Source: a virus (lineage: Duplodnaviria > Caudoviricetes). Taken from it: a stretch of 64,000 nt of DNA. The stretch spans positions 96,001-160,000 of the IMG/VR virus record IMGVR_UViG_3300028887_000075, one strand, 5' to 3'. Below the pieces are notes generated by a model that worked only from the letters and a program-made list of their open reading frames with translations, made no database searches and was not told where the DNA came from. The position numbers and the translations under genes are program-made. Numbering within the stretch: position 1 is the stretch's first letter; the number at the start of each line of letters is the position of its first letter. Shown here one piece after another: positions 18,068 through 62,928 of the stretch.

Positions 18068-18187
18068 GAAAATGGCTATTTCAGCCAAAATACCCAGGAA
18101 AAAAATACATTACCAATTTTCAAAAATCGCGTCGATTTCCACAAAAAACGGTATAGTTTCCTGTACAGAAAACCAACGAGGCCATCA

Positions 18188-19276
18188 ATGTACAGGGGAA
18201 TATACAACCTCCGCTCCGCAGACGACAACATTATACTCACCGCCGAGCAACTAGAAGAAAGCATCAAGTGCTCCAAGGACCCGGTGTACTTTTTCAGGAA
18301 CTACTGCTATATACACAATGCGAGACAGGGACTGCACCTGTTCCAGCCACGACCCAGACAGCTGGCAGAAATCCCGGTGCTTTCATCGGAGAAGATGGTC
18401 AAGTCCGACTGGTACCGGCAATCCGGATATACCACGCTGGTACTGGCGCTCATGCTATGGAAGGCGATGTTCACCGCAAATACCGCATGCCTATACATGA
18501 TACCCAAGAAGGAACTGGCATACGAAAACTTCAACGAGAAGGTCCGCCAGATGTACCTCGCGCTCCCTGAATGGCTACAGACGGGAGTCAAGGAATGGAC
18601 GCACGAGAGGATAAGGCTAGCAAACGGTAGCATTTTCTGTGCCAAGGCGGCATCCGCCGACAATGCGGCTGGTATAGGATGGGACTACATATTCATCGAC
18701 GAGTTTGGCTGGATTAAGGACAAGGCCATGATGGAAATAGTCAACCGGCTGTTCCCGGTCGCCTGGTCCTCGAAGAAACAGCACCTGATACTGGGCCAGA
18801 GCCACCGGTTCGGACGGCAGACACCCGCCAACCTGCTGTTCTGGCAGAACAACACGCTGCCGTTCCACGTGTCCGAGTTCACATGGGACCAGGATGAGCG
18901 GCTGGACGCGAAGTGGGCAGAAGCGGAGAGGCTGCGTATCGGGGACCGGAACTTCGAGAAGCAATACTGCGGGAAGATAGAGATGAAGGACGACCCGGAC
19001 GGACTCCCTGAACAGTTCGGCAGGTGGACCGTATGGGCGGAGGGAAAGTTCCCGGATGTCAAGGAACGCTCCGGAGGAAGATACATTTGTACTGTAGCAA
19101 TGTTCAGCCGGTCCACCGGCCTGCCGGTAGGCACACCGCATATAGATGTGCTGGCCGCGGATGGCAACGGCGTGTTCCACGGGCTGTTCAGCGACGACGG
19201 GACATACGAGAAGGTAGTCGCATGGATGCCAGCACCGGAGATACCCGGGGAAGTCCGGGAGATTTACGGGGAGTGA
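18188..19276 (+). CDS. degenerate T4 gp17-type terminase ATPase domain fused to a DUF551-like tail; no nuclease domain
   Basis: IKCSKDPVYFFRNYCYI, RQSGYTT (Walker A K to Y), IRLANGS, IFIDEFGWI (Walker B), FEKQYCG; tail VVAWMPAPEIP. Confidence 0.8.
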   Translation: MYRGIYNLRSADDNIILTAEQLEESIKCSKDPVYFFRNYCYIHNARQGLHLFQPRPRQLAEIPVLSSEKMVKSDWYRQSGYTTLVLALMLWKAMFTANTACLYMIPKKELAYENFNEKVRQMYLALPEWLQTGVKEWTHERIRLANGSIFCAKAASADNAAGIGWDYIFIDEFGWIKDKAMMEIVNRLFPVAWSSKKQHLILGQSHRFGRQTPANLLFWQNNTLPFHVSEFTWDQDERLDAKWAEAERLRIGDRNFEKQYCGKIEMKDDPDGLPEQFGRWTVWAEGKFPDVKERSGGRYICTVAMFSRSTGLPVGTPHIDVLAADGNGVFHGLFSDDGTYEKVVAWMPAPEIPGEVREIYGE

Positions 19277-19310
19277 GTTGGGGGCTACCGGGAGACTACC
19301 GGGAGGCCAC

Positions 19311-19856
19311 CTATATCCGGCAGTAAGAGTTGACGAACTCCCTTATCGTATTTACCGTGGAGGAACCGTTGTCGAAATCGCAGCATATGCTTTCGTCCCC
19401 TTCTCCGGTGTACTTGACGTGCTTAACGCTCCATCCCGTAGGACCGTAAAGGTCATAACCCAAGGCGGACTCTGTGATTCTGAGCGATTCCTTAAGTACA
19501 TTCCTGTATTGCATGACGCCATAGTTCTCCTTGCAGAATATCTCTATGGTGGGCGAGCCTGCCGTGAAGGTCACCGAGAAAGAGTACGGGGTGCCGTCGG
19601 GAGTGCGCTCATCCCGGCGTATCCGGCAAATCTGCTCCATGAAGTTGTCCACCGCGATGGCTACCAGGGAATGCCTGGCATCGGCTTCGATAGCGGCGAT
19701 TGCCTCCAGCGAGTCCAGCCTCGTCCTGTACTCATGGATTGCCTTGTCCTTCACCTCGGAAAGCTGCTCCGGGCTGATAGGAGTGGGGTATACTTTCAGG
19801 TTGCCGTCGTCGAACTTGACCTCGAAACTTAGTCCTCCGTCTAGCGTTATCCTCAT
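19311..19856 (-). CDS. hypothetical protein
   Basis: AAGGAG RBS; reverse promoter at 19888-19900. Confidence 0.7.
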   Translation of the reverse strand: MRITLDGGLSFEVKFDDGNLKVYPTPISPEQLSEVKDKAIHEYRTRLDSLEAIAAIEADARHSLVAIAVDNFMEQICRIRRDERTPDGTPYSFSVTFTAGSPTIEIFCKENYGVMQYRNVLKESLRITESALGYDLYGPTGWSVKHVKYTGEGDESICCDFDNGSSTVNTIREFVNSYCRI

Positions 19857-20030
19857 GTGGCGCTCCTTTGCTTATGCGCTATATGGGCAAATATAGCAAA
19901 TTCCGGCGGGGAGCACCGGGAGGCTTGCCTGCCGGTACCGGGTCAACCGGGAGGGCCCTAGGTGGTACGCGGGGTATACCGGGGGAGAGTACTGGTTCAT
20001 AGTGTACAATATTAGTAATCAATATTTTAC

Positions 20031-20294: not shown

Positions 20295-20302
20295 ATTGTT
20301 GA

Positions 20303-20602: not shown

Positions 20603-20617
20603 ACAAAGGATAATGTT

Positions 20618-21964: not shown

Positions 21965-21976
21965 TTAAAAAAGTTG

Positions 21977-22016
21977 AAGACCGGCCCCTCTCCGGGTCGG
22001 TCTTTTGCTATATTTG
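21977..22016 (+). terminator. terminator fused to a TTTGCTATATTTG promoter
   Basis: AAGACCGGCCC/GGGTCGGTCTT stem; T-run shared with the promoter. Confidence 0.75.
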
Positions 22017-22045
22017 GGAACGAACGAACTCGGATTTTGACTGCT

Positions 22046-23683: not shown

Positions 23684-24435
23684 AGATTGCCGGAATAGAC
23701 CCGTCGATGAACTCGTCAGGAAAGGTCATAATGGACCTGGACGACGAGACGTTCGACGTGAATGACATCCAGTTCTACGGGTACCAGCCGAAGCTGAACG
23801 CGGTTCTGGAGACCGAGCATGTCCATATCATGTGCAGCGGGACAGACTACGACAAGGTCCCGATGCTCGTAAGGCAGGAGCGGGCTATCAAGATTCTCGA
23901 GCGGGACATGGAGGATGTCAAGTACATCTCCTTCGAGGATTACGCCTACGAGAAGGCCAACGAGGGCAACAGCAACTCCATTTTCCAGATTGGGGAGTTC
24001 TGCGGGGCGTACCGGCGGCACTTCTACCTGCAGGGGAAGGGCATCATAACCTACGGTATATGCCAGATTAAGCACTTTGCCACCGGGAACGGGGACGCCA
24101 ACAAGATTGCCATGTGTGAGGCCATGAAGGCGGTCTACCCCCAGTTCTACTATCCGGAGTTTGAGCAGTTCCCCAAGCAGTACGAGAGTCCGCATTCCGA
24201 CCTTTGCGATGCCTTCTGGATGTGCGAGATACTCCGTAACCACATCAAGTATGATATTTTGGGACCGGAGAGCCTCCCGGAGGACACCCTGGCGCTGATG
24301 CGGTTCCATACTGCCAAGAAACAGTACGATACCAGGGCGTTGGTGGACTATTCCATGGTGAGAATGGCCGACTGGCCGGTGGATTTGGAACTTCTTACCC
24401 ATCGGAAGAAGCCGAAAAGGAAGAAAAAGGCGTAG
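23680..24435 (+). CDS. RuvC-like Holliday junction resolvase
   Basis: IAGIDPS, FEDYAY, IKHFATGNGDANK and DLCDAF motifs. Confidence 0.85.
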   Translation: MKIAGIDPSMNSSGKVIMDLDDETFDVNDIQFYGYQPKLNAVLETEHVHIMCSGTDYDKVPMLVRQERAIKILERDMEDVKYISFEDYAYEKANEGNSNSIFQIGEFCGAYRRHFYLQGKGIITYGICQIKHFATGNGDANKIAMCEAMKAVYPQFYYPEFEQFPKQYESPHSDLCDAFWMCEILRNHIKYDILGPESLPEDTLALMRFHTAKKQYDTRALVDYSMVRMADWPVDLELLTHRKKPKRKKKA

Positions 24436-24469
24436 TTTTCCGTATGGATATGAACCATACGGTACTACG

Positions 24470-25153
24470 ATGGCCTACACTGTCGAAGAAGACGAAAAAA
24501 TAGACGGCGACCCGCAGGAAACTGACGGTGTGAACCGTGAAGACGAGATTGACACCTCGGGCAAGAGGAGCAAGCTGGGCGACAAGGACATCGCCCACGA
24601 GATTGACGAGTTCCTGAAGAAGCCCAGGTTCCCCGGTGACATCTGTATCACCTTGAAGATGCCCGACAACTACCTGAAGAAGGCACGGGACAAGCTCAAC
24701 CTAGCACTCTGGAACGCATACCGCAAGTACGCAAGGACGGTAACCCGTACTGACCGCTACGGTAACGAGTACGAGGTACCGGGCTTCGGCATGTTCGACA
24801 TACTTATTACGCTCGATTCCTACGTAGACCCGGTAAAGCTCAGTGCAGTGCTTGACAACGACATCAAGCAGAAGGTTGCCGAGGAGCGCGGCATCAGGAT
24901 TTCCGATGACGAACTCGAATATGTGGCGAAGCACCCGGGAACTGCCAGGGCGGACAAGGACTCCCCGGATATAGTGGAATGTCCCGAGTGCCACGGTACC
25001 GGAGAGGTGGACGGTGAGGAATGTTCCCTCTGTCTTGGACAGGGCAAGGTCGCCCGTGTTGTGGACGATGTTCCGGCAGTCGAAGCCGACGATGACGAAC
25101 TCGACCTCGCACAACTGGACAGCATGATGCTGAGGACACTGAAGAATGGCTAG
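24470..25153 (+). CDS. hypothetical protein with DnaJ-type Zn finger
   Basis: CPECHGTG...CSLCLGQG. Confidence 0.75.
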   Translation: MAYTVEEDEKIDGDPQETDGVNREDEIDTSGKRSKLGDKDIAHEIDEFLKKPRFPGDICITLKMPDNYLKKARDKLNLALWNAYRKYARTVTRTDRYGNEYEVPGFGMFDILITLDSYVDPVKLSAVLDNDIKQKVAEERGIRISDDELEYVAKHPGTARADKDSPDIVECPECHGTGEVDGEECSLCLGQGKVARVVDDVPAVEADDDELDLAQLDSMMLRTLKNG

Positions 25154-27423: not shown

Positions 27424-27468
27424 GGGACCGGCATCAACTTGCCGGCCCCTTCTTTTTTGCTATATTTG
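27424..27468 (+). terminator. terminator fused to a promoter
   Basis: GGGACCGGCA/TGCCGGCCCC stem plus T-run into TTTGCTATATTTG. Confidence 0.7.
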
Positions 27469-27476
27469 GTTCAAGA

Positions 27477-28643
27477 ATGGCAATAAGTTTCGACGACATA
27501 CCCGCGTCGGTGTACGACTCGTTCATACACGAGCAGTTCGAGCAGTATGCCCTGGATGACTCCCATCCGGGGTTCTACAACTTCGTATGTCCGAATCCCG
27601 AGTGCGGGGACATGAACTTCCCTAACAAGAAGAAGGCGTATATCTATACCGATACCTGGCTCTATGTGTGCTGGAAGTGCGGTGAGCGCATGCATTTCGC
27701 CCGGTGGCTGAAGGAGCATGACGAGCAGGCATACCAGCGGCTCCTGTTCATGGCCTTCGGAAATGACCGTGGCCAGAAGAAGGAGGCGCCCTCCCCGAGA
27801 CCAGAGAGGAAACTGGATGCCACCCTCCCGTTCAAGGACGGGGAACTGATGTCCATTTACGACAGCGACCCTCTTGCACAGGCGGCGCTTGCCCTGTGCC
27901 GCTCCCGGAGAATCCGGGAGGAGGTATACTCGGAGTGGTTTGTGTGCCGCCAGGGCGAGCAGTTCTACGACCGGGACGAGGCAGGCAACATAAAGTATGA
28001 TGACTATGGCCGTCCGAAGGGAAACGATTACAGGAACCGCATAATCATCCCGTTCTACAAGTTCGGCGGCAAGTGGGGCCAGTTCGACGCCCGTGCGATA
28101 GACCCGAACAACCCACTCCGCTACCGGAACTTTACCGGTGTCAAGCGCGGTGCCTACAATATCGACTTCATCAACTACTCCGAGACAATCTACATTCTCG
28201 AGGGTACGATAGACTCTACCTTTATCCGCAACTCCATTGCCATTGGCGGCATCCCGCACTTCGGCGAGGTGATTGCCGAGAATCCGCAGCTTGCTGCCGC
28301 CAAGGACAGGATAGTTGTGCTGTGGGATAATGACCCGGAAGGGCGCAAGGCGAGAACGGGAACTACCTGTGACCAGGGGTACAAGTGGTTCTCCTGGGAC
28401 GGGATACACAGCAAGGACGTGAACGGGGCGGTGATGTCCGGGGAGTTCCCGGTGGATGCCGACGGTTTCGTCGATAGTAATTTTCTGAAGTCCCGCACGA
28501 GGGACCCAGAAGGGGCGAGTATCCTGTTCACCATGAAGTACGGCAACATGAAGAAGGAGGCTTCGAGGAAGCGGTTCGACGCACTGAAGGCATTCCGCGA
28601 GGGACGGGCGAAGCCGAACAACCGTCCGGAGGTTCTGTTCTGA
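27477..28643 (+). CDS. T4 gp61-like DNA primase
   Basis: Zn finger CPNPEC...CWKC, RIIIPF, TOPRIM LEGTIDS, WDND, KDVN. Confidence 0.9.
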   Translation: MAISFDDIPASVYDSFIHEQFEQYALDDSHPGFYNFVCPNPECGDMNFPNKKKAYIYTDTWLYVCWKCGERMHFARWLKEHDEQAYQRLLFMAFGNDRGQKKEAPSPRPERKLDATLPFKDGELMSIYDSDPLAQAALALCRSRRIREEVYSEWFVCRQGEQFYDRDEAGNIKYDDYGRPKGNDYRNRIIIPFYKFGGKWGQFDARAIDPNNPLRYRNFTGVKRGAYNIDFINYSETIYILEGTIDSTFIRNSIAIGGIPHFGEVIAENPQLAAAKDRIVVLWDNDPEGRKARTGTTCDQGYKWFSWDGIHSKDVNGAVMSGEFPVDADGFVDSNFLKSRTRDPEGASILFTMKYGNMKKEASRKRFDALKAFREGRAKPNNRPEVLF

Positions 28644-31569: not shown

Positions 31570-31592
31570 GCCATAAACTACGGTAGTCGAAT

Positions 31593-32753
31593 ATGGACTG
31601 CCGTATGCAAATTGAACTTGATGATATCTTGCTTGAGGCCCTCGGTGAACTGCCGGACCTCCCGGAATCCCTCGTAGTCGCCCTGGTGGAAGGCGCCCAT
31701 GCCCTCACCGGTGGTATGCGCAAGTTCCGCCCCCTCACTCCCGAGGAGACCGATGCGGTTGTCGACTACCTGAGGGGCAACGCCGCCAGGCTTGGAACAC
31801 CGTTCAACGAGGCCGAAATCCGGGCAGATATCGCGAAGCATCCGGGAAAGTACCAGAATACCCTGGCGAACATCAAGAAGCGCCGGGAGATGCCGTCTGC
31901 CTTTGAAAGGAACATGCGCATAAAGCAGTCTGCTGACAGGAGGCAGGCCGAGGTGGACAACAAGGCGAAACGTTTCATCTACTATGCGGCCATCGTGGAG
32001 CGGCTCAAGAAGAGCTTCTCCCACTTCGGTATTCCGTTCGACGAGACGCGTGCCATGACGGACATAGCGCGTGACGATGCGAGGTGGCTTGCGCGAGTGG
32101 TACTCAGGGATGCCCAGGAGAATCCAGTATTCATGTCGCTCGGTATGGCGGCCAAGGACCCGTCCGTAAGCTACCTCCGAATGAAGAATCCTTCCCTTGC
32201 CAAGTACATGCAGGATGCATTCAGCTTCAGCCGGATGGACGAAAAGGAACTGGAAAGCATGAAGGTCGAATACAGGTACATGCGGCCGGATGTTGCCAAG
32301 GAGGCTGCCAGTAAGTCCGGGAAGAATCCTGGCGAACATTCTACTACCAACACGGAATATGACAGCAAGATAGCTCCATGGTACGGCAAGGGAGTATCGC
32401 TAGTTGATGTGGTGATGAAATGCAAGGATGTACCGTACGACTACATATGTCGGTACTTCGTGGAGCATGGTGGGGCCGACCGGGTCAAGGATGCGCCCAG
32501 GGCCGGGGAGGACATCGTGGAATACCTCCGCAGGCTACCCAGGGGTGACCGGGGTGAACTGGAGTTCACCACCGAGCTCAACCGGCTGTCCGAGGCTGCA
32601 TTCGGGCGGGCCGTGGTCGACGGTGCTGTCAAGCAGGTTGAACGGGAAAATCCCGGAAAGTTCGCCGAGATGACGGCGAAATGCTCCCGCAGCATGGTCA
32701 AGCCGAAGGATATACCGCTGTACGCCGCGTGGTGCACCTTGCACGCCAAGTAG
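31593..32753 (+). CDS. hypothetical protein (ATAAACT promoter class)
   Basis: 386 aa ORF. Confidence 0.75.
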   Translation: MDCRMQIELDDILLEALGELPDLPESLVVALVEGAHALTGGMRKFRPLTPEETDAVVDYLRGNAARLGTPFNEAEIRADIAKHPGKYQNTLANIKKRREMPSAFERNMRIKQSADRRQAEVDNKAKRFIYYAAIVERLKKSFSHFGIPFDETRAMTDIARDDARWLARVVLRDAQENPVFMSLGMAAKDPSVSYLRMKNPSLAKYMQDAFSFSRMDEKELESMKVEYRYMRPDVAKEAASKSGKNPGEHSTTNTEYDSKIAPWYGKGVSLVDVVMKCKDVPYDYICRYFVEHGGADRVKDAPRAGEDIVEYLRRLPRGDRGELEFTTELNRLSEAAFGRAVVDGAVKQVERENPGKFAEMTAKCSRSMVKPKDIPLYAAWCTLHAK

Positions 32754-32799
32754 GCCAGCAGTATAAACTACTGGAAAATCGACAGAATCGAGGTTCCAA

Positions 32800-34290
32800 G
32801 TGGCCGTATCGCTTACAGATTTCACGAAGACGTTCCAGTACGTCACCACCAAGAGCGGACCGGTAGTCCCGGCCCGTACGACAACCGTCGACATGATGAA
32901 GGGCACGCTGCCCCCAGTAGACGACCAGACCAAGGAAAAGTTCGACCACCGGACATACGAGAACAAGAACCTCGAGATGAAGAAGAACTACCTCTCCCTC
33001 CGCGATATCGGGGTGAAGGTCATGACCGAGGCTACTTCCAGTACGTCATATTCCCCGATGCGGCTCAATCTCGCCGGGATGGACATGGACAATACCTCGC
33101 TCAACGGGGCCTTCAACTGTGACGGCACTCCGGTTACAATCAACCTGAAGTATCCCAACAAGAACGGGAACATCAGTGTCGAGCTCACCCTGGACGGCGG
33201 TGCGACCATGCTGTACGAGGTATCCCTCGATTCCGACCAGTTCAAGGGGAACTTCGCCCAGTCAATCCGGGAGAGCGCCAGGAACCTCATCAAGCAGAAC
33301 AGCGAACCGGCCGACCTGGACGAGATGCTTTACGGTGTGGGTGCCATCCCGAGCATGAAGGACAACTTCAACGACACGCTCGGCATCGCCAATTCCGACA
33401 CCAACAACATCACCGCATACGAATCTGTCGACTGGAAGCTCCAGAAGCTTCTCAATGTATGCAACGAGGCCGCCATGCTCGAGGCCGATGACGACATGGG
33501 TGGCGACGCCGGTGCCGACTTCGGTGCGGATGACTTCGCCGCCCCGGCGGACGGCGGTGCACCTGCCGGTGGCGACATGGGCGCCCCCCAGGATGCCGGC
33601 GATGTCAACGGTGTTACCGATGGTAACGGCAAGGGTGACGACATGCTCGAGTTCCGCGAGTTCTGCCTCCCGAGCGACCCGGATAACGGCTCCGGCCTAT
33701 CCCAGGCAGCATGGGACAACATGGCCCAGATTGTATCCGACGCAATCAACTACATCAACGACAACCAGGCTGGTGGCGTCAAGCCGTCGGCCAATGAATG
33801 GTACGAGGGCTTCCCGGGTGTCAAGAACATGATTCCGGAAGAAATACTCGAACAGTTCCTGTCGTTTGACGACTACAAGGCGCTCGATACCACTCTCCCC
33901 ATCGACGGCCTTAGGCAGTTTGCCCATGCCCTCGAGGGTGGCAAGATTGACATCACCAAGTTCAAGACCGACCTCGGCAAGTGGTTCCCCGAAGTGTACA
34001 ATACCGACGGTACTGCCATGAGTGACGTGTCCAAGGAAACTGCCGCCATGACGTTCCCGGCCGATGACCAGACCGGCGTCGGACAGGGTCTCGACATGAA
34101 CTCCCAGATGGACTTCGGCGGCTACGACGGCTTCAACGATACCGAGGGCATGATGGACCAGGCCAACGCTATGGTCGGCAATGGCAATACCGACCCGGGC
34201 ATCGACATGAGCGAGGGCGGTAGCGATTCCGAAGAACCGGGTAAGGACAAGACCGACATCGCAATCGACTCCTTGGACAACCTGTTCTAG
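32800..34290 (+). CDS. very acidic Asp/Gly-rich protein ending in SLDNLF
   Basis: 496 aa ORF, GTG start with GAGG RBS, TATAAACTA upstream. Confidence 0.8.
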   Translation: MAVSLTDFTKTFQYVTTKSGPVVPARTTTVDMMKGTLPPVDDQTKEKFDHRTYENKNLEMKKNYLSLRDIGVKVMTEATSSTSYSPMRLNLAGMDMDNTSLNGAFNCDGTPVTINLKYPNKNGNISVELTLDGGATMLYEVSLDSDQFKGNFAQSIRESARNLIKQNSEPADLDEMLYGVGAIPSMKDNFNDTLGIANSDTNNITAYESVDWKLQKLLNVCNEAAMLEADDDMGGDAGADFGADDFAAPADGGAPAGGDMGAPQDAGDVNGVTDGNGKGDDMLEFREFCLPSDPDNGSGLSQAAWDNMAQIVSDAINYINDNQAGGVKPSANEWYEGFPGVKNMIPEEILEQFLSFDDYKALDTTLPIDGLRQFAHALEGGKIDITKFKTDLGKWFPEVYNTDGTAMSDVSKETAAMTFPADDQTGVGQGLDMNSQMDFGGYDGFNDTEGMMDQANAMVGNGNTDPGIDMSEGGSDSEEPGKDKTDIAIDSLDNLF

Positions 34291-34309: not shown

Positions 34310-34340
34310 GAAGGCGGCTGCTACCGGCAGCTGCCTTTTT
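34310..34340 (+). terminator. intrinsic terminator
   Basis: AAGGCGGCTGC/GCAGCTGCCTT stem plus T-run. Confidence 0.8.
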
Positions 34341-34374
34341 GATTTAGTTTCTCTACCGAAAGAGAGGAACTATT

Positions 34375-35535
34375 ATGTCCGAAGAAGTATCTACAGTAGA
34401 AGAATCCGCCGGGCCGAGCCTGGTCATGTTCAATACCGTTACCGGTTTCCGCGAGGCGATGACCTTCATCGGGTTCTCGTGCGAGTCAGATGACGTCAAG
34501 GTGCACGTCGAGACCTTCGAGAACGAGGAAGAGGGACTTGTCTACATGAAGCTCACTACGTCCAAGGGTGTCAGCGTGCTTATCGACTCGACCCTGAAGT
34601 CCAAGTGCCTGGATAGCGATGCGTATGTCAACCTCCGCGACCTGTACGTGTTCTGCGACAAGGGTGTGAAGGACGGACTGGTTGCCATGTGGGTGGCCGA
34701 CAACAGGCTCTATGTCGGTTCGTCGTTTAATGAGTCGTTCCAGGGGTTCGAGTCCGAGGCAAGTCTCCCGCTGCTCGAACCGTTCGAAACCGAAGCCGAG
34801 GAATTCCTGCTGCAGGATAGTATCAAGATTGAGCAGACCGTGATGGCGTCAATCATCGACAGCGTCTATACGTTCGACTGCATGGAGATTATCAGGAAGG
34901 AGGGGACGCTCTCGTTCCGCACCGGGGATGACCGGGTGACAATCGCTACCCTCCCGGCAAGTACCAAGATGGAATCGTTTACGGAGGACGGCAAGCTGGG
35001 TGATTTCGAGGTTTCTGTCCCGCTGTGCATATTCAAGCTTATCCCGCTGGTAGAAACCAAGTCGGTATGCACGATGGAGTTCGACTGGACCCACGGGACA
35101 ATCCGTTCACAGGGAAAACTCTATGGGTTTACCTACAAGTTTGCGCCGGCAACTCTCCGTACGGGTACCAGTGACGGTATGATGTCCTACATGAAGTTCG
35201 ACACGCTCGGCATGGCAGCGACTATCGACATGATTTACGGGCTCAACTACCGTGACCCGACTGCACCGGTCACCCTTACCCCGCTTGATGAGAAGACTGT
35301 CGAAATCAAGTACGCCAACGGTGACCGCTATGAGGGTGTCATCACGATGACCGGGGTCAAGATGATGGATACTAAAAAGTCCATCGAGTTGCCGATGGAC
35401 ATAAGTACTATGATGGTCAGGAATGCCGGGACTTCCGTGCTTGAGCTGCTCTATGGCGAAGATGGCCGCCTCTTTATGACATACTGCAACGAGAAGATGG
35501 GCTACGCCAGGAAGTGCATGTACTTCGGCGATTAG
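34375..35535 (+). CDS. probable DnaN (beta-clamp)-fold protein
   Basis: 386 aa, acidic; collinear by-eye similarity to DnaN segments (VNLRDLYVFC...NRLYVGS; IEQTVMASII; FRTGDDRVTIA; EVSVP; VTLTPLDEKTVEI). Confidence 0.5.
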   Translation: MSEEVSTVEESAGPSLVMFNTVTGFREAMTFIGFSCESDDVKVHVETFENEEEGLVYMKLTTSKGVSVLIDSTLKSKCLDSDAYVNLRDLYVFCDKGVKDGLVAMWVADNRLYVGSSFNESFQGFESEASLPLLEPFETEAEEFLLQDSIKIEQTVMASIIDSVYTFDCMEIIRKEGTLSFRTGDDRVTIATLPASTKMESFTEDGKLGDFEVSVPLCIFKLIPLVETKSVCTMEFDWTHGTIRSQGKLYGFTYKFAPATLRTGTSDGMMSYMKFDTLGMAATIDMIYGLNYRDPTAPVTLTPLDEKTVEIKYANGDRYEGVITMTGVKMMDTKKSIELPMDISTMMVRNAGTSVLELLYGEDGRLFMTYCNEKMGYARKCMYFGD

Positions 35536-36156: not shown

Positions 36157-36753
36157 CTAAAGTTCCTTTTCCTCGTCGGTCCACCACTCGTTTCCGCCTA
36201 TTCCTGGCTTGGTGGCCATAAAACGTTCTCCCGGGTCGACCGACGGATATTCCTTGAACCCGAGCCTTGAATAGAGGCGGTAGGCCCCGTCGTTGTCCTT
36301 GGCCGTATGCAGGGATATTCCCTGTGGGGAGTCCTGGATGGCCTGCCTGATGAGCAGGCTGCCGGTGCCGGTGCTACGTTCGTCTTCCGGTACGTATACC
36401 AGGTAGATGTAGGCAGTCCCGTCCTTGTTAGTTACCGTAACCAGGCCCTGCCGTCCGTCTATCGTGTATGCGTGGATTCGGCGGTCCCAGGTATGCTGCG
36501 CGTTATCCAGACACTCTGCCAGGAACTTATCGCTTTCCTCCGGGTTGTCATGGTAGCATTCGGCCTCGTTCTCCGTTACCTTGCGGTATATGGCCATGAA
36601 CTCGCCATAGGTCATCTCCCTGATACCGGAAACAACCGGTTCCTGGGATTCCAGACATACCCGGTATCCTGTGCCAAGGGTTTTGGCCAGCTCGTGGGGA
36701 ATTCCGGTAAGTATGTGGTTGATTGTCATGTTTGCAAGTTGGTTGATTGTCAT
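36157..36753 (-). CDS. GNAT acetyltransferase
   Basis: VYVPEDERSTGTGSLLI and NDGAYRLYSRLGF motifs; alternative start at 36729. Confidence 0.8.
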   Translation of the reverse strand: MTINQLANMTINHILTGIPHELAKTLGTGYRVCLESQEPVVSGIREMTYGEFMAIYRKVTENEAECYHDNPEESDKFLAECLDNAQHTWDRRIHAYTIDGRQGLVTVTNKDGTAYIYLVYVPEDERSTGTGSLLIRQAIQDSPQGISLHTAKDNDGAYRLYSRLGFKEYPSVDPGERFMATKPGIGGNEWWTDEEKEL

Positions 36754-36764
36754 GTTTGCAAGTT
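36717..36764. repeat. exact 24 bp tandem duplication
   Basis: GGTTGATTGTCATGTTTGCAAGTT x2. Confidence 0.95.
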
Positions 36765-36860
36765 TATCGCCCCAGGCAGTATCCCGGAAACTGCCGGAAA
36801 ATACTTTTTGCCACCTGTATAAACTTACCGTCAAATAACCTTTTACCGGATGGTATCCAA

Positions 36861-37493
36861 ATGGCATATTCAATCGAAGAAGAAGATAAGATGCTCGCGA
36901 TGATTGAGGCTATCGCTAACCAGCCTATCGAAGAGCAGCGCCCGTACAACGAGGTCAAGGACCCGAAGCCGATTGTTGAGTCCGCCTGTTTCGAGGGCGT
37001 CAAGGTCGACTTCTCCGGCTGGACCGAGGACAAGAAGAAGGTCGGCAAGGCCAAGACCGCCGAGAACCCGGACCTCGCCAAGCAGTCCAAGGATGCACCG
37101 AAGGTGACCGACGTGGACACCAAGGGCACTGCGGTTGCTACGGAAGGTACCGAGAAGCCGGTTACCGAGAACGACACTGTCACCGAGAAGAAGGAAGACA
37201 AGCAGGTCACCGAGCTCGTCACCGAGGATGCCACCCACGAAGCCAAGGGCGAACCCAAGGCAAAGACCGGCAGCTTCGACACGAAGGCCAAGTCTACCGC
37301 CTCCGCCCAGCGTTCCAAAGCTGACTCCAACAAGAAGTTCTCCGAGGAAAGCAAGCGCCAGCGCAAGATTGACATGTTCAGGGACTTCGTGAAGTCACTG
37401 GGAGTCGACAAGGAATCCAAGGAAGCTGCCGAGAAGGTGCTGAAGAAGTTCGACGAGATTTCCAAGCACATCGGTGAACCGGGCGAAAAATAA
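36861..37493 (+). CDS. charged Lys/Glu/Thr-rich protein, possibly virion-internal
   Basis: TATAAACT promoter at 36818; strong codon bias. Confidence 0.75.
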   Translation: MAYSIEEEDKMLAMIEAIANQPIEEQRPYNEVKDPKPIVESACFEGVKVDFSGWTEDKKKVGKAKTAENPDLAKQSKDAPKVTDVDTKGTAVATEGTEKPVTENDTVTEKKEDKQVTELVTEDATHEAKGEPKAKTGSFDTKAKSTASAQRSKADSNKKFSEESKRQRKIDMFRDFVKSLGVDKESKEAAEKVLKKFDEISKHIGEPGEK

Positions 37494-37517: not shown

Positions 37518-37553
37518 AATGCCTACCCTAGGTAGGCATTTTTGCTATATTTC
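37518..37553 (+). terminator. terminator fused to a promoter
   Basis: AATGCCTACC/GGTAGGCATT stem followed by TTTGCTATATTT. Confidence 0.75.
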
Positions 37554-37564
37554 CGGTAGCTGCT

Positions 37565-40498
37565 ATGGAAACTATGGAATTGGCCTCGCCGGACAAGAAG
37601 TCCGACGAGCACAGGATGTGGTCGGCGATATACCACGACAGGGATACTGACAACCTGTTCCTCTGGTACGACGACGGGACGATGGAGCAGAAGCGCATCG
37701 TCAATACCTTCTACACCCCGAATCGGGGCGAGTTCGGCGCCATGCCGTGCGGAATGAAGGACATATACGGAAGGGAGATGTATGCCGTCCAGAGGCATAC
37801 CGCCCAGGAACAGGACATACGAAAGCGCTATATCGGACCCAATAACCACCTGGCCGAAATCGATATAGACCCGAGGGCCAGGTTCCTCCAGCAGCACTAT
37901 GCTAACACCGGCATGCTCAAGCCGGACATGAGCAAGATTAACATCTGCTTCCTCGATATAGAGGTGGAGACTACCGGTCGCTTCCCGATGGCCCACCGTG
38001 CCGAATACCCTATCAACTGCGTTACCATCTACTTTTCTGCTACCGACAACTACTTTACCTACGGTGTTGGACGTGACATTGAGGACTGGGTCAAGGAGAA
38101 GATGGCCAAGGAGAACTGCCAGTACGTGCTGTGCGAGTCCGAATCAGACCTGCTTACCCGATTATTTACCGAGATTGGCCGAAATGACGTAGCCATTCTC
38201 TCGGGGTGGAACTTCTCCTACGATACCACGTACATGGTCAACCGGGCCCAGAAGCTCGGTATCGACATCAAGCTCATGTCCCGTCTCCCGGCTCAGTTCA
38301 AGAAGGCCTGGGTCAACAACGACGGCGAGCTGCAGATTGCCGGAACGGAGGTCATCGACTTCCTCGCCCTCTACCGCAAGTACACCTTCTCCGAGCAGCC
38401 TTCCTACAAGCTTGACTACATCGGCGGGATGATTACCGGCGAGCACAAGGCTCCCCTTCCCGACGGATACAAGTCCTGGAAGAACTACTGGTCGCAATTT
38501 ATCTTTTATAACTGGCAGGACGTTCGCCTGCTCAAGATGATGGAGCTGGAAGTGAAGATGTTCCAGCTGTGCGTCACTGCTGCGGCGGAGGCCCACGTCC
38601 CGTTCTCCTTCGTGTTCGAGTCCAAGAAGATGCTGGTCGGCTTCGTTATGAACCACCTCCATAAGAACGGCATGGTGTTCCCGGCCTACCGCCAGCAGTC
38701 CAAGGAAGAGTATCCCGGTGCCTTCGTGTATTCAATCCCCGGTTTCTACAAGTGGCTCGTGTCGTATGACTACCGCTCGCTGTATCCGTCCATAATGATG
38801 ACGTTCAATACCTCGCCGGAGACCAAGGTCACCAAGCCGATGGACTACATCATGACCGAGGAGGAACGCGCCACGCTCATTGAGAGCCCGTGGACGCACA
38901 ACGGCAGGTACAAGGTATACTTCCGGAAGGACAAGGAGGGCATCGTCCCCCAGGTAACAAGACTTCTATTTGATGGCCGTGCTAACCTGAAGAACAAGAT
39001 GAAGGCTGCGAAGAAGGCGGGCGACCACGAAATGACCGCCGTCTACGACATGATGCAGAAGGTGTACAAGGTGCTCGGAAACTCCCTGTACGGTCTGCTC
39101 GGTTCAAACTTCTTCCCGTTCTACGACGTGGACAATGCCGCATCCATTACCGCATTCGGCCGCAACCTCATCAAGTTCACCATCGAGCAGCTTGCCCACT
39201 ACCTCAACGAGGAGGTGGCCCACGACGAGCGCTTCATCAAGGCGTTCGGGTATGTCCCGGAAATCGACCAGTCCTTCCTGGGAACTACCATGGACGATGA
39301 CGGCCAGGTGCTGTTCAAGAGGATGTCCCACGGCGATACCGACTCGTTCTACTGCAAGGTGGGCGACCTGTTCGAGGAGTTCCGCAAGAAGCAGGGGACC
39401 GGTACGGAGGTCATCGTCTATACCGGACACGAGGAGACCGAGAGGTATTCCTTCGGCAATTCTCCCGAGGAGGAACTGGAGTCCCGCAAGTGCTTCAACC
39501 GCATGTGCAACAAGTACGCGCATGCCCAGTGGCATGACCCGGAGAACCGGGCGATAGACAAGAAGACCGGCCTTTCCAAGGTCAAGATTATGTTCCACGA
39601 CGGCATCGTGTGGGGTAAGGGCTGCAGGATTATATACAACCGGTACAGGCTCACCGACTTCTGCCGCATCATGGACGCCGTTATCCTAGAAGAGAAACTG
39701 GACGAGTTCATGCTCGCCTACGCCACCAAGTGGGGATATCTGACGAACGAGCTGTTCCTGAAGCGCGAGAAGTGCATCTACAAGGCAATCGTCACGGCAA
39801 AGAAGAAGTACATCTGCGAGGCGGAGTCCAACGAGGATATTGTCTACCTTGACAAGGAGCCGAAGAAGGACGAGCAGGGCAACGTTGTCGAAATCGGCTC
39901 GATGGAATTGACTCCCGACTTTGCCGTTACCGGCCTTGAAATCGTCCGCAGTTCCACCACGCTGTTCTCCCGCGAGCGCATGATGGACATGGTTAAGCTG
40001 ATGCTGAAGACCATGGACAAGGGCGTAGTGCGCGAGAGGCTTCTGGAAATCAAGCGCGAGTTCTTCCAGGCGGTCAAGGACGGCAAGTACTCCTACATCT
40101 CCATGCCTTCCGGCATGAAGGAGGAGCCCGTCCCGTATGCGATACAGTGCCACCTGCCAAAGGATGAACTCTCCAAGCTGGACTGGCGCCGCAGGGCGGC
40201 ATCCGTGTGGAACTACCTTATCGAGTTCGACCCTATCTTGTCCAAGGAGCCTTACGAGCCAATCGTTGCCGGTGAGAAGATGAAGTTCATCAAGAAGGCT
40301 GACGACGACTACGGCGTATCGATTATCTGTTACACCGGAGAGGAGTGCCCGCAGCGTCTCATTGACATGTTCCATATAGACTGGGACCAGCAGTGGAAGG
40401 TTTCCGTGGCCCAGATTCTGGGAAGACTGTTCGGAGCCGTGGGGTGGCCGGAAGAATTGGAATATGACGAGACCGACGCGATGCTCGAACTGATTTAG
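37565..40498 (+). CDS. family B DNA polymerase (gp43-like)
   Basis: Exo DIEV, GWN..YD, YN..DV; pol DYRSLYPS, KVLGNSLYG, HGDTDS, KKKY, GLEIVRSST. Confidence 0.96.
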   Translation: METMELASPDKKSDEHRMWSAIYHDRDTDNLFLWYDDGTMEQKRIVNTFYTPNRGEFGAMPCGMKDIYGREMYAVQRHTAQEQDIRKRYIGPNNHLAEIDIDPRARFLQQHYANTGMLKPDMSKINICFLDIEVETTGRFPMAHRAEYPINCVTIYFSATDNYFTYGVGRDIEDWVKEKMAKENCQYVLCESESDLLTRLFTEIGRNDVAILSGWNFSYDTTYMVNRAQKLGIDIKLMSRLPAQFKKAWVNNDGELQIAGTEVIDFLALYRKYTFSEQPSYKLDYIGGMITGEHKAPLPDGYKSWKNYWSQFIFYNWQDVRLLKMMELEVKMFQLCVTAAAEAHVPFSFVFESKKMLVGFVMNHLHKNGMVFPAYRQQSKEEYPGAFVYSIPGFYKWLVSYDYRSLYPSIMMTFNTSPETKVTKPMDYIMTEEERATLIESPWTHNGRYKVYFRKDKEGIVPQVTRLLFDGRANLKNKMKAAKKAGDHEMTAVYDMMQKVYKVLGNSLYGLLGSNFFPFYDVDNAASITAFGRNLIKFTIEQLAHYLNEEVAHDERFIKAFGYVPEIDQSFLGTTMDDDGQVLFKRMSHGDTDSFYCKVGDLFEEFRKKQGTGTEVIVYTGHEETERYSFGNSPEEELESRKCFNRMCNKYAHAQWHDPENRAIDKKTGLSKVKIMFHDGIVWGKGCRIIYNRYRLTDFCRIMDAVILEEKLDEFMLAYATKWGYLTNELFLKREKCIYKAIVTAKKKYICEAESNEDIVYLDKEPKKDEQGNVVEIGSMELTPDFAVTGLEIVRSSTTLFSRERMMDMVKLMLKTMDKGVVRERLLEIKREFFQAVKDGKYSYISMPSGMKEEPVPYAIQCHLPKDELSKLDWRRRAASVWNYLIEFDPILSKEPYEPIVAGEKMKFIKKADDDYGVSIICYTGEECPQRLIDMFHIDWDQQWKVSVAQILGRLFGAVGWPEELEYDETDAMLELI

Positions 40499-50347: not shown

Positions 50348-50365
50348 TAAAAGGAGGACTAGAAT

Positions 50366-55396: not shown

Positions 55397-55605
55397 GATT
55401 CTATCAAGACTCGGAATGAACTTATCGCTGATTGGTTGAACGAGTATTCATGTCAGAACGGCGACCAGGGCATGACAAAAATATATCATACCGGATGAGT
55501 CAAGGATAGGCCGATATAGAGGGCTTTCTATTCGTCTAATCAAGGATTAATTTGCTATATTTGGGGGTACCGCTGGTCGGTACCCTTTATTTTTTGGAGA
55601 TTTGT

Positions 55606-56721: not shown

Positions 56722-56768
56722 CGCAAATGCATTAGTTTCCTGAGCAAAGACAAGGAAACTTTTGCATT

Positions 56769-58109
56769 ATGGACTTTTCCAAGAAGATTGAAACACGAAT
56801 CGGCGAGCTTCTCGAGAAGAAGCGCGAGTTCAACGTCCTCTACGTCGGGGACAACACTTCCCGCCTGTCCTGCGTGCGCGGACTTACCGCCATGCAGCAG
56901 TTCAAGTCGTTCTACAGCTCCATTGCGAGCGTGTCGGTCACTACGATGGACAGCAAGACCTTCTGCAAGTCCAGGCCGAACCTCGACAGCTTCGGTATCG
57001 TCTGGGTCGACAACGTAATCAACCGCCAGTTCAACGACACGCTCCTCGCCCTCATCGGCGAATCCTTCGACCGCAAGGAACCGGGATGGCGTGACGAGGG
57101 CAAAGCTCTTGCCGGTGACCTCCGCGCGCAGTTCGACAAGGAAGCCAACGAGTACCGTTCCCTCCTCACCCACGTAGTATACTCCCTGGATGAGTTCGTA
57201 TGGGATGCCCCGGCTGCCCGCAATCGTACAATCATCGAGGCCCGCACGGTGGCCGACTGTGTGAGCTACGCCGACACGGTGGTCGTGCCGAACAACGAGA
57301 TGCGCACCGCCCTCGTCCAGCTCCAGCTGGCCGACGAGGACAAGGATATCCAGATTATCCCGAGCTTCGTATCCTCCCAGTTCTACCCGACGCACAAGGT
57401 TTTCCTCAAGTCGAAGACCGGGTCGACCGTAATCAACCGCCCGAAGGTGCTCGTCAAGGGAACGGAAATCCCGAAGAATGTCCAGAACTTCATCATTCAC
57501 GGAACGGACGACTACGACTTCACAATCTGCACCGTCGGTGAGCTCGACCAGCGCCTGATGGAACTTCTCCGTCCGCGCAGCAAGAAGGAAGGACCGCTTG
57601 TCCGCAACCTGATGCACTGGGCCAACCCGTATGTGACCGCCGACAACATGGCGGAAACCATGGCTATGGAACGAGACGCCGGCTTCGACTTCGTTATTCT
57701 CACAGGTCCAGACGACTATGCCGACGATATCTACAACGTCACCATTACCGATACCGATGCCCTGCTTGCCATCTCCGCAGGTTCTGTAGTGTTCGCCCAG
57801 ATTGAAAAGGCTGGGTTCGCCAAGGGAATCCACCTCTGCAACGAGACGGGCGAGGACTTCATCTTCAGCGAAGAGACCAAGGTCAAGGAACTGAAGGACC
57901 GTATCGAGAAGTGGCGTATCACGGTCAACTGGGACGAGGCCTACACCAAGCAGCGTACCCTCCTCGAACACCGCCTGGTGTCCGACCCGCAGGTTCTCGC
58001 AGGATTCTTCCACGCGATGCTCGGCCGCAGGGTCAGCACCGAGATGAAGGGCCGTTTCGACGAGGCGATGGCCAAGTCAAAGAAGGCTGAAGACAATGCC
58101 GACGTTTAA
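56769..58109 (+). CDS. glycosyltransferase-like (GT-B fold) protein, divergent
   Basis: VYSLDEFVW...ADTVVVPNNEM...IQIIPSFV pattern. Confidence 0.5.
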   Translation: MDFSKKIETRIGELLEKKREFNVLYVGDNTSRLSCVRGLTAMQQFKSFYSSIASVSVTTMDSKTFCKSRPNLDSFGIVWVDNVINRQFNDTLLALIGESFDRKEPGWRDEGKALAGDLRAQFDKEANEYRSLLTHVVYSLDEFVWDAPAARNRTIIEARTVADCVSYADTVVVPNNEMRTALVQLQLADEDKDIQIIPSFVSSQFYPTHKVFLKSKTGSTVINRPKVLVKGTEIPKNVQNFIIHGTDDYDFTICTVGELDQRLMELLRPRSKKEGPLVRNLMHWANPYVTADNMAETMAMERDAGFDFVILTGPDDYADDIYNVTITDTDALLAISAGSVVFAQIEKAGFAKGIHLCNETGEDFIFSEETKVKELKDRIEKWRITVNWDEAYTKQRTLLEHRLVSDPQVLAGFFHAMLGRRVSTEMKGRFDEAMAKSKKAEDNADV

Positions 58110-60155: not shown

Positions 60156-60348
60156 GAAGGCGCTCATAAAGAACAAGTGCATCATTTCCGAGATGACGTC
60201 CAACACGTTCGCCGACTGCGACAGGATGTTCTTCTCGGAGTTCCTCGAACTTGCCCGGTATGCGGCGAAGCGGTTCACCGCCGAGCACTACATACCCGAC
60301 CAGGGGGAGGAACTGTCCAATTATGGATAGTTTGCTATATTTGTGGAT

Positions 60349-60831
60349 ATGATTGAACGGCTCTATATTGACATGGACGGCGTGATGGTCGACTTCGACG
60401 GGCGCGTGGACGAGCTCGGGTGCCGGCTGGCTCCCGGTAAGCACCCGTCGTATGTCGACTGGAACCGGGTTAAGGAAATCGGGCCGGACTTCTGGGCGAC
60501 GATGCAGTGGTTCCCGGAGGGGAAGGCGTTCTTCGAGGAGTGCCAGCGGGTCTGCCGGGAGAACGGCATCGAGATGGGAATCCTTACCGCCATATCCATT
60601 CCTGCCGGTGTCAAGGGGAAGAGCCTGTGGGTTCACTGGAATACGGACCTCGACAACGAGCACCTGATTATCGTGCCTCATGGATATGACAAGTACCGCT
60701 TTGCCGCTCCCGGGCGTGTCCTGGTGGATGACGACCCGAGGAACATTTCCGACTGGAATGCCGCCGGTGGCACCGGGATACTCTACAAGGACGCTTCCGG
60801 CGCCTTCCGGGAGATTCTCGGGCTAATCTAG
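60349..60831 (+). CDS. HAD-family 5'(3')-deoxyribonucleotidase, probably leaderless
   Basis: IDMDGVMVDF, ILTA and LVDDDPRNISDWNAAGGTGI motifs. Confidence 0.85.
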   Translation: MIERLYIDMDGVMVDFDGRVDELGCRLAPGKHPSYVDWNRVKEIGPDFWATMQWFPEGKAFFEECQRVCRENGIEMGILTAISIPAGVKGKSLWVHWNTDLDNEHLIIVPHGYDKYRFAAPGRVLVDDDPRNISDWNAAGGTGILYKDASGAFREILGLI

Positions 60832-60857
60832 CAGAAATCAGGTTTTTCCATAGAACG

Positions 60858-60882
60858 GGGCCGCCTTCCGGGGCGGCCCTTT
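60858..60882 (+). terminator. GC hairpin / terminator next to an ATAAACT promoter
   Basis: GGGCCGCC/GGCGGCCC stem followed by TTT. Confidence 0.6.
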
Positions 60883-60915
60883 CGGGTATAAACTACCGAA
60901 TTGAGGATATACCCC

Positions 60916-62928
60916 ATGGCAAATACCGCACAGACATCAGCGGCTACCGCTGCCGAGCAGGAAACGATAAAGGCTATCGAGCAGAAGCTTTCCGGCCTCA
61001 GTTCCATAATGGAAGGCTTCAAGAACGGCATGACCGAATTTGCCAAGGTAATGACCGACGAGAAGAGCCAGTTCTTCCAGAATATGTCTAGCATCATGTT
61101 CGGCTCTATGCAGAGGAACGATGCCGACCGTCGTGCATACGAGGAGGCGAAGGCCCAGCACGAGGAAACCAGGAAGATGGCTATGGGGGCCAGGGGTCCA
61201 GAGCGGGGACAGGCGGGATTCTGGGAAGCGGCCTTCGCGGCCACCCCTGATAAACCGGAGGAAATTCAGGCAAGGGCCACCATCAAGGCACTTACTTCTG
61301 ACGACGTCAAGAAGCATATGCAGGAGGCTTTTTCCACCGCTACCATAAAGAATGCCGTGAGTGAAGGCGATTCGCGCACTACAGGCGAGAAGGCACTGGA
61401 TTTCATGGGTTTGGGATTCATTAACAAGATTAAGAACCGAATTCAGGACCGTGACATCATACATGAGGAAAAGGCCAACAAGAAGGACAAGGATTCCATT
61501 GCAAGGGATATGCGCGAGAAGGCGAGGTTGGAAGCGGCAATCAGGAAAGCAAAGGGTCCGGACGGTACCGGCGAGGATGCCATTGAGCTCGTTGAACGGC
61601 TGCGCGAGGTAAATTCCAATATCAAGGATGCCGAAGGAAGGCTCGATGCGCGAAAGCGTGCCGCCGACCCGTATTCTGACCTTATCGAGGGTGACGGGCT
61701 TGATGCCCGGTTTATCGACGGCAAGGGCGTGGTAATAGGCGATTCCAAGGGGAAACTGGCCGATACACTTGACAATCCAAGTTCACCCCTTAAGGTAACC
61801 GATTCAAAATCTGATAAGGACGACGATAAGAAACGGTCGATATCAGGAGTAGACGAGGAAGCTGCTGCGGAGGTCGAATATGAACTCAACACTAAGGCCC
61901 GTCCTGATTTCTACAAAGAAGGCACCGAGGCATTCAAGGCTATTAATGATGGAGAACTTAGTTCCGGCATAGCATCGTCGGTGAGCAGCGGATTGATGTC
62001 AGGTGTAGGTAGTGGGGTCGGCAAGGGAATTGCGGACAGCCTGATGCCTACATTCATGGACAAGGCAAAATCCAAGTTCTTCCGCAAGGATGCAGAGGGC
62101 GCATTCCCGTCAGGCGAAACCGGCGACGCAAAGGAGATTGCCGACACCGAAAGATACCTAAATACCCAGTTAAGGCCGGACTTCTACAAGGAAGGCATAC
62201 GGGCATTCAAGGTAATTAATTCCGGTAAGCTCAAAGTAGGCGAAGGTGAGTCGGGGAACAACGAAAGCCTGATTGATACGTTCAAGGACATGGTGCCGGA
62301 TTTACCTGAGCTACCCGGTAAACAGAAGGTCAAGGAAGTGGTTGACTTCATTAAGGAAGGACCAAATGGCGCCTCAAAGAATATCAAGGCATTTCTTGAT
62401 AGTACCGTTGAGAATCTGGAAAATAGTAAACGTGGTTGGGATAACGAGCAGAAAGATGCCATGATAGCTCATACCAAGGCTGAAAAGGAGCTAGAAGAAG
62501 GCAAGCTGTTCGGATTTACGATGCCATGGCAGTTCCGGCAGGTAGCCAAGGTTAAGAAAGCCAAGGTAGAAATGGATGAAGCCTCTAAAAAGTTTGGTGA
62601 ATTCACCAAGGCGGCAAGGGAAAGGGGAATATCGTTCGATGACCAAGAAGCTATGATGAAGTTCAAGGACGAGTATGACCATGCTAAGGGTGGAACGGGC
62701 ACTGCAGGAAATGCAGGCAAGCAGATGCCGCCAAACGCTACTACTCCTGGAGAATCGGTTGACCCCCGCAAGTCAGAAACTGCTGATGAAAAGACAGCGC
62801 GCGAAGAGGAGACTCTGTTCCGTGCCGTCAAACGAGCATTGACGGATGTCGATGTGCAGAAGCAGAATTTGGAAAATGCCAAGGTGACTGGCCAGCAGAT
62901 TGACCAGTCATTGACCGGGAGGAAGTAA
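60916..62928 (+). CDS. long helical virion protein (tape-measure or baseplate-hub-like)
   Basis: Coiled-coil; internal repeat LNT..RPDFYKEG..AFK.IN.G.L x2; context. Confidence 0.55.
   Translation: MANTAQTSAATAAEQETIKAIEQKLSGLSSIMEGFKNGMTEFAKVMTDEKSQFFQNMSSIMFGSMQRNDADRRAYEEAKAQHEETRKMAMGARGPERGQAGFWEAAFAATPDKPEEIQARATIKALTSDDVKKHMQEAFSTATIKNAVSEGDSRTTGEKALDFMGLGFINKIKNRIQDRDIIHEEKANKKDKDSIARDMREKARLEAAIRKAKGPDGTGEDAIELVERLREVNSNIKDAEGRLDARKRAADPYSDLIEGDGLDARFIDGKGVVIGDSKGKLADTLDNPSSPLKVTDSKSDKDDDKKRSISGVDEEAAAEVEYELNTKARPDFYKEGTEAFKAINDGELSSGIASSVSSGLMSGVGSGVGKGIADSLMPTFMDKAKSKFFRKDAEGAFPSGETGDAKEIADTERYLNTQLRPDFYKEGIRAFKVINSGKLKVGEGESGNNESLIDTFKDMVPDLPELPGKQKVKEVVDFIKEGPNGASKNIKAFLDSTVENLENSKRGWDNEQKDAMIAHTKAEKELEEGKLFGFTMPWQFRQVAKVKKAKVEMDEASKKFGEFTKAARERGISFDDQEAMMKFKDEYDHAKGGTGTAGNAGKQMPPNATTPGESVDPRKSETADEKTAREEETLFRAVKRALTDVDVQKQNLENAKVTGQQIDQSLTGRK

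Follow-up and report, generated by a model that had tools for sequence, protein, structure and literature searches.

Hairpins over start codons at internal promoter-like motifs of an uncultured huge phage: candidate T4 gene e-type translation locks

Genes and features of the window

The DNA analyzed here is a window of 64,000 nucleotides (nt), bases 96001–160000 of a 170,734-base-pair (bp) IMG/VR viral contig (IMGVR_UViG_3300028887_000075) rated 41% complete by CheckV. Its subject is a set of RNA hairpins that join promoter-like hexamers (TAAACT or TAGTTT) to the start codons of the genes behind them; positions are those of the window, and features lie on the + strand unless marked (-). An earlier note on this DNA had named about nine probable late genes with such hairpins and had taken the arrangement for a general solution to having late genes scattered among replication genes, so that read-through mRNA would stay silent. 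Our analysis reduces this proposal to five or six genes, in two promoter classes and in a read-through context.

The contig encodes a T4-like replisome (UvsX, a DnaB-like helicase, a gp32-like protein, a primase and PolB, according to Pfam, PHROGs and PDB sequence searches), as well as a TerL-like protein, a sheath protein of 1,249 amino acids (aa) and a tube protein. Because the relatives with the same genes occupy contigs of 430–470 kb, the contig belongs to a huge phage. A megablast search with the sheath region found no match among GenBank phages. The Pfam, PHROGs and PDB sequence searches assigned no function to the genes starting at 31605, 32800, 34375, 56769 and 60916, so that 'late' cannot be checked through the function of these genes. 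Syntenic loci were gathered from related contigs for ortholog comparison.

Promoter-like motif classes

Three motif classes, TTGCTATATTTG, ATAAACT and TAGTTTC, were found by k-mer enrichment in the 60 nt before starts, using our own crude gene calls. Within 60 nt upstream of a start codon and in sense orientation are 22 of the 35 copies of ATAAACT (1.2 expected) and 8 of the 22 copies of TAGTTTC (0.75 expected). The bare hexamers TAAACT and TAGTTT occur roughly as often as composition predicts (26/24 and 32/28 copies) and show no over-representation; their placement, not their abundance, is the distinctive property. The gap between the end of TAAACT and the start codon, measured in the window's genome and in three relatives, is bimodally distributed (6–8 nt in 15 cases, 19–36 nt in most others, and 9–18 nt in two), which supports a transcription start about 6–7 nt after the hexamer, as the short spacing leaves no room for a leader and is what a -10-type element with a start 6–7 nt downstream would give. 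The motifs also come straight after terminators at 34.3 kb and 60.9 kb. From enrichment, conservation and bimodal spacing we infer that ATAAACT and TAGTTT act as promoters.

The motif class is constant within each ortholog group, TAAACT and TAGTTT being kept per gene, and the two are therefore separate classes. (T/G)ATAAACT resembles the T4 late promoter TATAAATA (6 of 8 bases match) and precedes the sheath and tube genes. TAGTTT carries an upstream aaaTG-N3 (class form aaaTG-N3-TAGTTTC). Before the TerL-like gene, where the promoter-like element is TATAGTTT (18152–18159, with TAGTTT at 18154–18159), the 69% ortholog L046 has TGATATAATTT, the counterpart of TAGTTT itself being TGATATAAT. Given the upstream aaaTG-N3 and this replacement, TAGTTT looks like an extended -10 promoter (TGnTATAGT); 'late' is unproven for this class and, with most of the genes lacking a known function, for the genes in general. 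The TTGCTATATTTG class is likely the early, host-type one. A reading of TAGTTT, the reverse complement of AAACTA, as an ATAAACT element on the other strand was rejected on three grounds: TAGTTT is orientation-specific, an upstream aaaTG of its own accompanies it, and there is no divergent gene for it to serve.

Genes starting 4–8 nt after a promoter-like hexamer are common contig-wide (e.g. TATATTTG-tggc-ATG and ATAAACT-N6-7-ATG); examples in the window are at 15823–15837, 27461–27479, 36753–36772 (-) and 60336–60351. Over four genomes, 15 of 92 TAAACT sites and 15 of 46 TATATTT sites have this leaderless spacing, and the pattern implies that leaderless mRNAs are probably widespread in both the early-type and the ATAAACT class.

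Hairpins with strong folding

Folding was scored as the minimum free energy (MFE) against 200 dinucleotide shuffles (fold z), and the RNA was refolded after a cut at hexamer +6. All nine inverted repeats are present where the earlier note placed them, each with its hexamer in or just before the 5' arm. One of these pairs, 31571–31575/31592–31596 (CCATA/TATGG), is trivial, the stronger hairpin at this gene being 31579–31588/31596–31605. The geometry also holds: a transcription start 6–7 nt after the hexamer, which fits the bimodal spacing, would remove most of each 5' arm. On the long transcript, stable start-masking hairpins are predicted in silico at five genes (18188, 24470, 31605, 32800 and 56769; z -3.3 to -4.7), whereas the remaining four repeats (34375, 36861, the sheath gene and 60916) reach only z -1.1 to -1.7, with no such stable hairpin at 36861 or the sheath gene. 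Conservation in relatives with compensatory changes was seen at four of the five strong hairpins (24470, 31605, 32800 and 56769) and not at 18188, 34375, 36861 or the sheath gene.

The hairpin at 18188 (18157–18200) has a core of CCTGTACA (18160–18167) and TGTACAGG (18189–18196) that extends on both sides, and its 3' arm lies over the ATG at 18188. Its MFE is -18.1 kcal/mol (z -4.7), a value not reached by any of 200 shuffles, and after the cut at the predicted start it becomes -0.6 kcal/mol. The TerL-like protein encoded by this gene (18188–19276) has 362 aa; its N-terminal part matches within a 1,015-aa open frame of the relative G001 (G001:C1:17733–18332), and its C-terminal part matches a separate locus (82221–82484). 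These split matches suggest that the protein is a paralogue or fragment, not a standard large terminase.

At 24470, a 15-bp hairpin (24431–24469) contains TAGTTT (24433–24438) and abuts the ATG at 24470 with its 3' arm (z -3.3; MFE -21.5 kcal/mol, and -7.3 kcal/mol after the cut). Eight orthologs have a mean z of -3.17 with differing arm sequences. The TAG of TAGTTT doubles as the stop codon of the upstream RuvC-like gene, and all eight orthologs have this stop within the 5' arm.

The hairpin at 31605 (z -3.5), which together with its TAAACT (31574–31579) occupies 31574–31607, has the last T of TAAACT at one end and the A of the ATG at 31605 at the other; this ATG is the called start in two orthologs. 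When three orthologs were analyzed with RNAalifold, 10 pairs were obtained, and compensatory double changes affect 3 of these. The gene itself (31605–32753), which has an ATAAACT and a hairpin of its own, is confined to some relatives (L034 and L035); in the others, what comes directly after the clamp-like gene is the 32800 ortholog or an unrelated gene of 123 aa. The gene looks like an inserted cassette that may have brought or duplicated the promoter.

At 32800 (32764–32803), TAAACT (32764–32769) is followed by the hairpin 32768–32776/32794–32803, which has the conserved GTG start at 32800 within its 3' arm and whose inner stem touches the Shine-Dalgarno (SD) sequence CGAGG (z -3.3). Each of fourteen orthologs has a z between -1.5 and -3.5 (mean -2.42), and what distinguishes the arm variants ACTGGGAA/TTCCCAGT from TACGGGAA/TTCCCGT is a paired indel, in which one whole base pair is lost, together with flanking changes.

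The hairpin at 56769 (56726–56768), ATGCAT..TAGTTTCCT/AGGAAACT..TGCAT, holds TAGTTT (56733–56738) inside its 5' arm, and its 3' arm includes the SD and abuts the ATG at 56769; its z is -3.8, and its MFE goes from -20.8 to -2.8 kcal/mol after the cut. Seven of 8 orthologs, with amino-acid identity as low as 47%, retain the TAGTTT(T)CCT/AGGAAACT pairing; their loops measure 6 to ~50 nt and their outer stems differ, and the pair adjacent to TAG is A:T, C:G or T:A depending on the ortholog. MAFFT/RNAalifold mis-registered the arms at both 32800 and 56769 (paired indels, a TTT/TTTT length difference), so the covariation counts understate the pairing there, and the arms were read directly instead. 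An extra GC-rich stem-loop of 35–50 nt is present within the loop of the 56769-family hairpin of four relatives and brings the whole structure to ~-38 kcal/mol (L015:6638–6718 (-), L028:19206–19297 (-), L024:14510–14595 (-) and L042:5417–5503).

Weaker sites

At 60916, a GGGTATA/TATACCC hairpin (60884–60918) straddles TAAACT (60889–60894), its 3' arm ending 1 nt before the ATG, and a terminator-like hairpin lies just 5' of it. The z is -1.1. Each of seven orthologs has a different promoter-straddling or promoter-adjacent hairpin, and the unpaired probability of the start region in the orthologs rises by 0.21 on average after the cut at the predicted start.

At 34375 (34310–34372), a terminator (34310–34338) is followed by a 10-bp hairpin, TAGTTTCTCT/AGAGGAACTA (34345–34354/34363–34372), that covers the SD before the ATG (z -1.5; MFE from -14.0 to -2.2 kcal/mol after the cut). 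The terminator and TAGTTT are conserved among the orthologs; the hairpin is present in this lineage only and is not conserved in fourteen orthologs (mean z -0.13). Gene 36861 has TAAACT and a 7-bp repeat (36826–36832/36849–36855) in a divergent intergenic region (36820–36855); its z is -1.5, the pairing is broken in a 93% relative and the mean z of the orthologs is -0.41, and we judged the repeat to be chance. Before the sheath gene (46598), in the segment 46558–46618, TAAACT is followed by a conserved leader, TTCCGCCAGAA, with weak long-range pairing of GCCA with TGGC in the start region (z -1.7; orthologs' mean z -0.98); the paired bases are invariant among the orthologs, so covariation is unreadable there. 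Two further motif sites in the window, not among the nine, have z of -0.1 and +0.3.

Class-level controls and operon context

For class-level scoring, the MFE of the segment from -46 to +18 was compared with shuffles in four genomes. Genes with no motif (n=239) have a mean z of 0.05, with 3% below -2.5. Leadered TAGTTT genes (n=28) have a mean z of -1.21, with 25% below -2.5 (p=6e-5 vs no motif), leadered TAAACT genes (n=66) -0.34, with 9% below -2.5 (p=0.054), and leadered TTGCTATATTTG genes (n=23) -0.16, with 0% below -2.5 (p=0.16, not significant). By the same measure, 4 of the 11 leadered motif sites of the window lie below -2.5, against 3% of the 239 no-motif genes. An excess of folding over controls is thus seen for TAGTTT genes and little of it for ATAAACT genes. 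The lock is not a general property of ATAAACT genes, since the fold, accessibility and duplex effects of the class are small and it barely differs from controls.

Structure depends on the context of the motif. Motif sites behind a co-directional gene have a mean z of -1.15 (n=49) and those in divergent regions -0.04 (n=40; p=0.001); restricted to the window's genome, the two means become -1.60 and +0.11 (p=0.0125). No-motif genes in co-directional context have no such effect (mean z +0.13, by a separate pre-start-shuffle accessibility measure). The read-through rationale of the earlier note agrees with these values for a narrower set than it had claimed, internal promoters behind co-directional genes. 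All five strong sites lie in co-directional operons headed by TTGCTATATTTG, at ~15823, 22006, 27461 and 55556. The TTGCTATATTTG-class promoter at 27461–27468, before the leaderless primase gene, would be the source of read-through for 31605 and 32800, and that at 55556–55563, before the Mre11-like gene, the source for 56769. No + strand terminator was found between these upstream promoters and the five strong sites, and from 27461 there is none before 34310. Among the weak sites, 34375 follows a terminator, and 36861 and the sheath gene lie between divergent genes.

Neighboring no-motif genes have mean z from +0.35 to -0.63 in the orthologs. PolB has a mean z of -1.51 and is below -4 in two distant relatives.

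A proposed promoter-specific translation lock

Motifs, spacing, hairpins with their conservation and covariation, and operon context are all read directly from the DNA; promoter identity, start positions, when each class is active and how translation is affected are what we infer from them. In the proposed mechanism, an ATAAACT or TAGTTT promoter would sometimes be internal to a co-directional operon for which an upstream TTGCTATATTTG promoter already provides transcription. The hexamer, or the few bases from it to the transcription start, would form the 5' arm of an RNA hairpin, with the SD sequence, the spacer or the start codon masked by its 3' arm. In read-through mRNA this hairpin would fold and prevent initiation, and mRNA starting 6–7 nt after the hexamer would lack the 5' arm and be translatable. 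A lock of the T4 gene-e/I-TevI type is our best reading of these sites, with a probability of roughly 55%, and we are more confident that the conserved structures are real than that they work in this way. Such a lock would be found at about five or six places: 24470, 31605, 32800, 56769, probably 60916, and, in this lineage only, 18188.

Several results weigh against this reading. The 18188 hairpin is missing from its one ortholog, L046 (69%; z -0.4). At 24470, motif conservation is ambiguous because TAG is the upstream stop codon in all orthologs; it need not point to a promoter, and the arm would be melted by a ribosome that terminates there. At 31605 no greater openness of the short transcript is predicted, and at 32800 the inner stem still contacts the SD in the short transcript. 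The start-region accessibility tests agree with the fold classes, with small effect sizes: truncation opens the start region in silico by +0.10 on average (controls: 0.046), the accessibility gained is as large for leadered TTGCTATATTTG genes as for the supposed late classes, and when the segment that lies upstream of the predicted start is shuffled, the mean z comes to only -0.2 to -0.4. Duplexes between start regions and their cognate 5' segments are only marginally separated from non-cognate ones, and duplex energies of -12 or lower occur in 14% of no-motif genes as well. Finally, orthologous sites in relatives are not independent, and the pooled p-values are therefore optimistic.

The hairpins might instead act on every transcript that carries them, as translational attenuators, coupling devices or operators, the start region being opened or closed by an upstream ribosome or by a phage RNA-binding protein that recognizes the TAGTTTCC/GGAAACTA stem. 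Start-region operators have precedents in T4 gp32, gp43 and RegA (PMC3014915), and the TAGTTTCC/GGAAACTA stem recurs at 56769, at 34375 and in several relatives. The arm sequences are gene-specific, hence there is no common protein site outside the TAGTTT box, and the TAGTTT class shows no enrichment of AAACT or GGAAA close to the start codon (2 of 28 vs 3% of controls, p=0.2). Coupling is strongest at 24470, where, as in the MS2 coat/replicase hairpin, a ribosome terminating at the stop codon in the 5' arm could unmask the downstream start. An upstream stop is also partly within reach of the 5' arm at 56769, where the outer stem begins 5 nt after it. It is out of reach at 18188 and 60916, which have no nearby upstream open reading frame end, and at 31605 and 32800, where the 5' arms begin 10–17 nt past the upstream stop; a terminating ribosome unwinds by our estimate only ~5–7 nt past the stop, which would not extend to these arms and disfavors coupling there. 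In this respect the sites other than 24470 differ from MS2, and we regard action on every transcript as an unlikely account of the set. We also rejected TAGTTTCC as a built-in anti-SD, since the matching GGAAACT near start codons is not enriched across class members, and dropped N4-type DNA-hairpin promoters, as loop length varies between 6 and 50 nt and each gene has a stem of its own.

Chance together with selection by eye has to be considered as well, because inverted repeats are common in short leaders of mixed AT/GC content and the T/C-rich TAGTTTCC box readily pairs with purine-rich SD regions. We accept chance for 36861, 34375 and the sheath gene, three of the nine sites, which are at or near background and not conserved; the lineage-specific hairpin at 18188, the cognate duplex energies that barely exceed non-cognate ones and the no-motif genes with strong duplexes noted above point the same way. 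For the set as a whole it is improbable, given the share of window sites with z < -2.5, the dependence on operon context and the four genes with ortholog-conserved structure and compensatory changes, of which the flanking genes have none. Still less do we favor RNA processing or stability elements, by which RNase III-type cleavage would separate cistrons and free the start, or stem-loops would protect the RNA, with the AU-rich hexamer as cleavage context. Stems do begin at or within the hexamer, and in G1, G2 and L042 the 56769 hairpin, at ~-38 kcal/mol, has a long interrupted stem of the kind that is a typical RNase III substrate. But most stems have just 7–10 bp, and a 5' stem-loop that pairs the start codon would not aid translation. 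The strict hexamer–ATG spacing of 6–8 nt in the 15 leaderless cases, the back-to-back arrangement with TTGCTATATTTG (class A) promoters and the placement straight after terminators all fit a -10 element, not a cleavage site.

Comparison with known systems

The T4 precedent of the promoter-specific lock, for which the earlier note named e, soc, 49 and I-TevI, is real. In T4 gene e, the late promoter lies within the DNA coding for the hairpin's 5' strand, hence late transcripts lack this strand (PMC3014915). The sites described here share with it a -10-like hexamer located in the 5' arm or just before it, and a 3' arm that lies over the SD or the start codon. They differ in the hexamers (ATAAACT or TAGTTT; TATAAATA in T4), in host and phage lineage (here an uncultured huge phage with many leaderless mRNAs), and in that several arms lie over the start codon or spacer instead of the SD. 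T4 I-TevI, I-TevII, I-TevIII and segB, and Aeh1 mobE, lie in early or middle operons, have their own middle or late promoter and expose the ribosome-binding site only on their own transcripts (PMC2988022). Those genes encode homing endonucleases, whereas most genes here belong to a conserved core neighborhood, without assigned function, among replication and recombination genes; the 31605 gene, in only some relatives, is the one resembling an inserted cassette. That the sites are further cases of this known lock is partly supported; they are not a general solution.

A wider reading is tentative, and we think it rather doubtful: in this huge-phage clade, gating of translation by the identity of the mRNA 5' end could be a design rule conserved at ~45% protein identity, with about one-sixth of motif-bearing genes leaderless and with systematic hairpins at internal promoters in early operons. 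The 5' arm would then be the promoter's own -10-to-start segment, and the same bases would serve as promoter DNA and as anti-start-region RNA. If the promoter-specific lock is true, the classic T4 device, in which one gene has two promoters and is translated from only one, would extend to an uncultured lineage of 430–470 kb phages that use different promoter sequences. An internal promoter with a lock would mark genes that need delay relative to their operon, and would give a sequence-only handle on the temporal program of phages not yet in culture. The 32800 and 56769 families, with their conserved covarying hairpins, are ready test cases.

Other features of the contig and its relatives

Between the TTGCTATATTTG promoter and the Mre11-like start (55556–55605) is a GC-rich hairpin with a T-run (55563–55587) that looks like an attenuator or leader terminator. 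The PolB start region, with z of -4.0 and -4.7 in L037:12640–12703 and L041:12807–12870 and -1.5 in the window (37528–37591), recalls the T4 gp43 translational operator.

Compact divergent promoter cassettes, in which ATAAACT stands back-to-back with TTGCTATATTTG or ATAAACT on the opposite strand, have a near-fixed spacing (tatagcaaaa-N4-6-gaTAAACT) and are found at 36753–36825 and at several places outside the window (e.g. contig 83392–83428). In G001, TAGTTT lies 9–19 nt upstream of ATAAACTA before the same gene (e.g. contig 131595, 139496, 148059 and 150003), and these pairs look like tandem promoters of two classes; with TAGTTT being the reverse complement of AAACTA, the tandem arrangement is at the same time an inverted repeat. 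Related phages have Cas12f/TnpB-like genes (Pfam Cas12f1-like_TNB) inserted at differing places (L034:18973–20766 (-) and L043:8337–9554 (-)).

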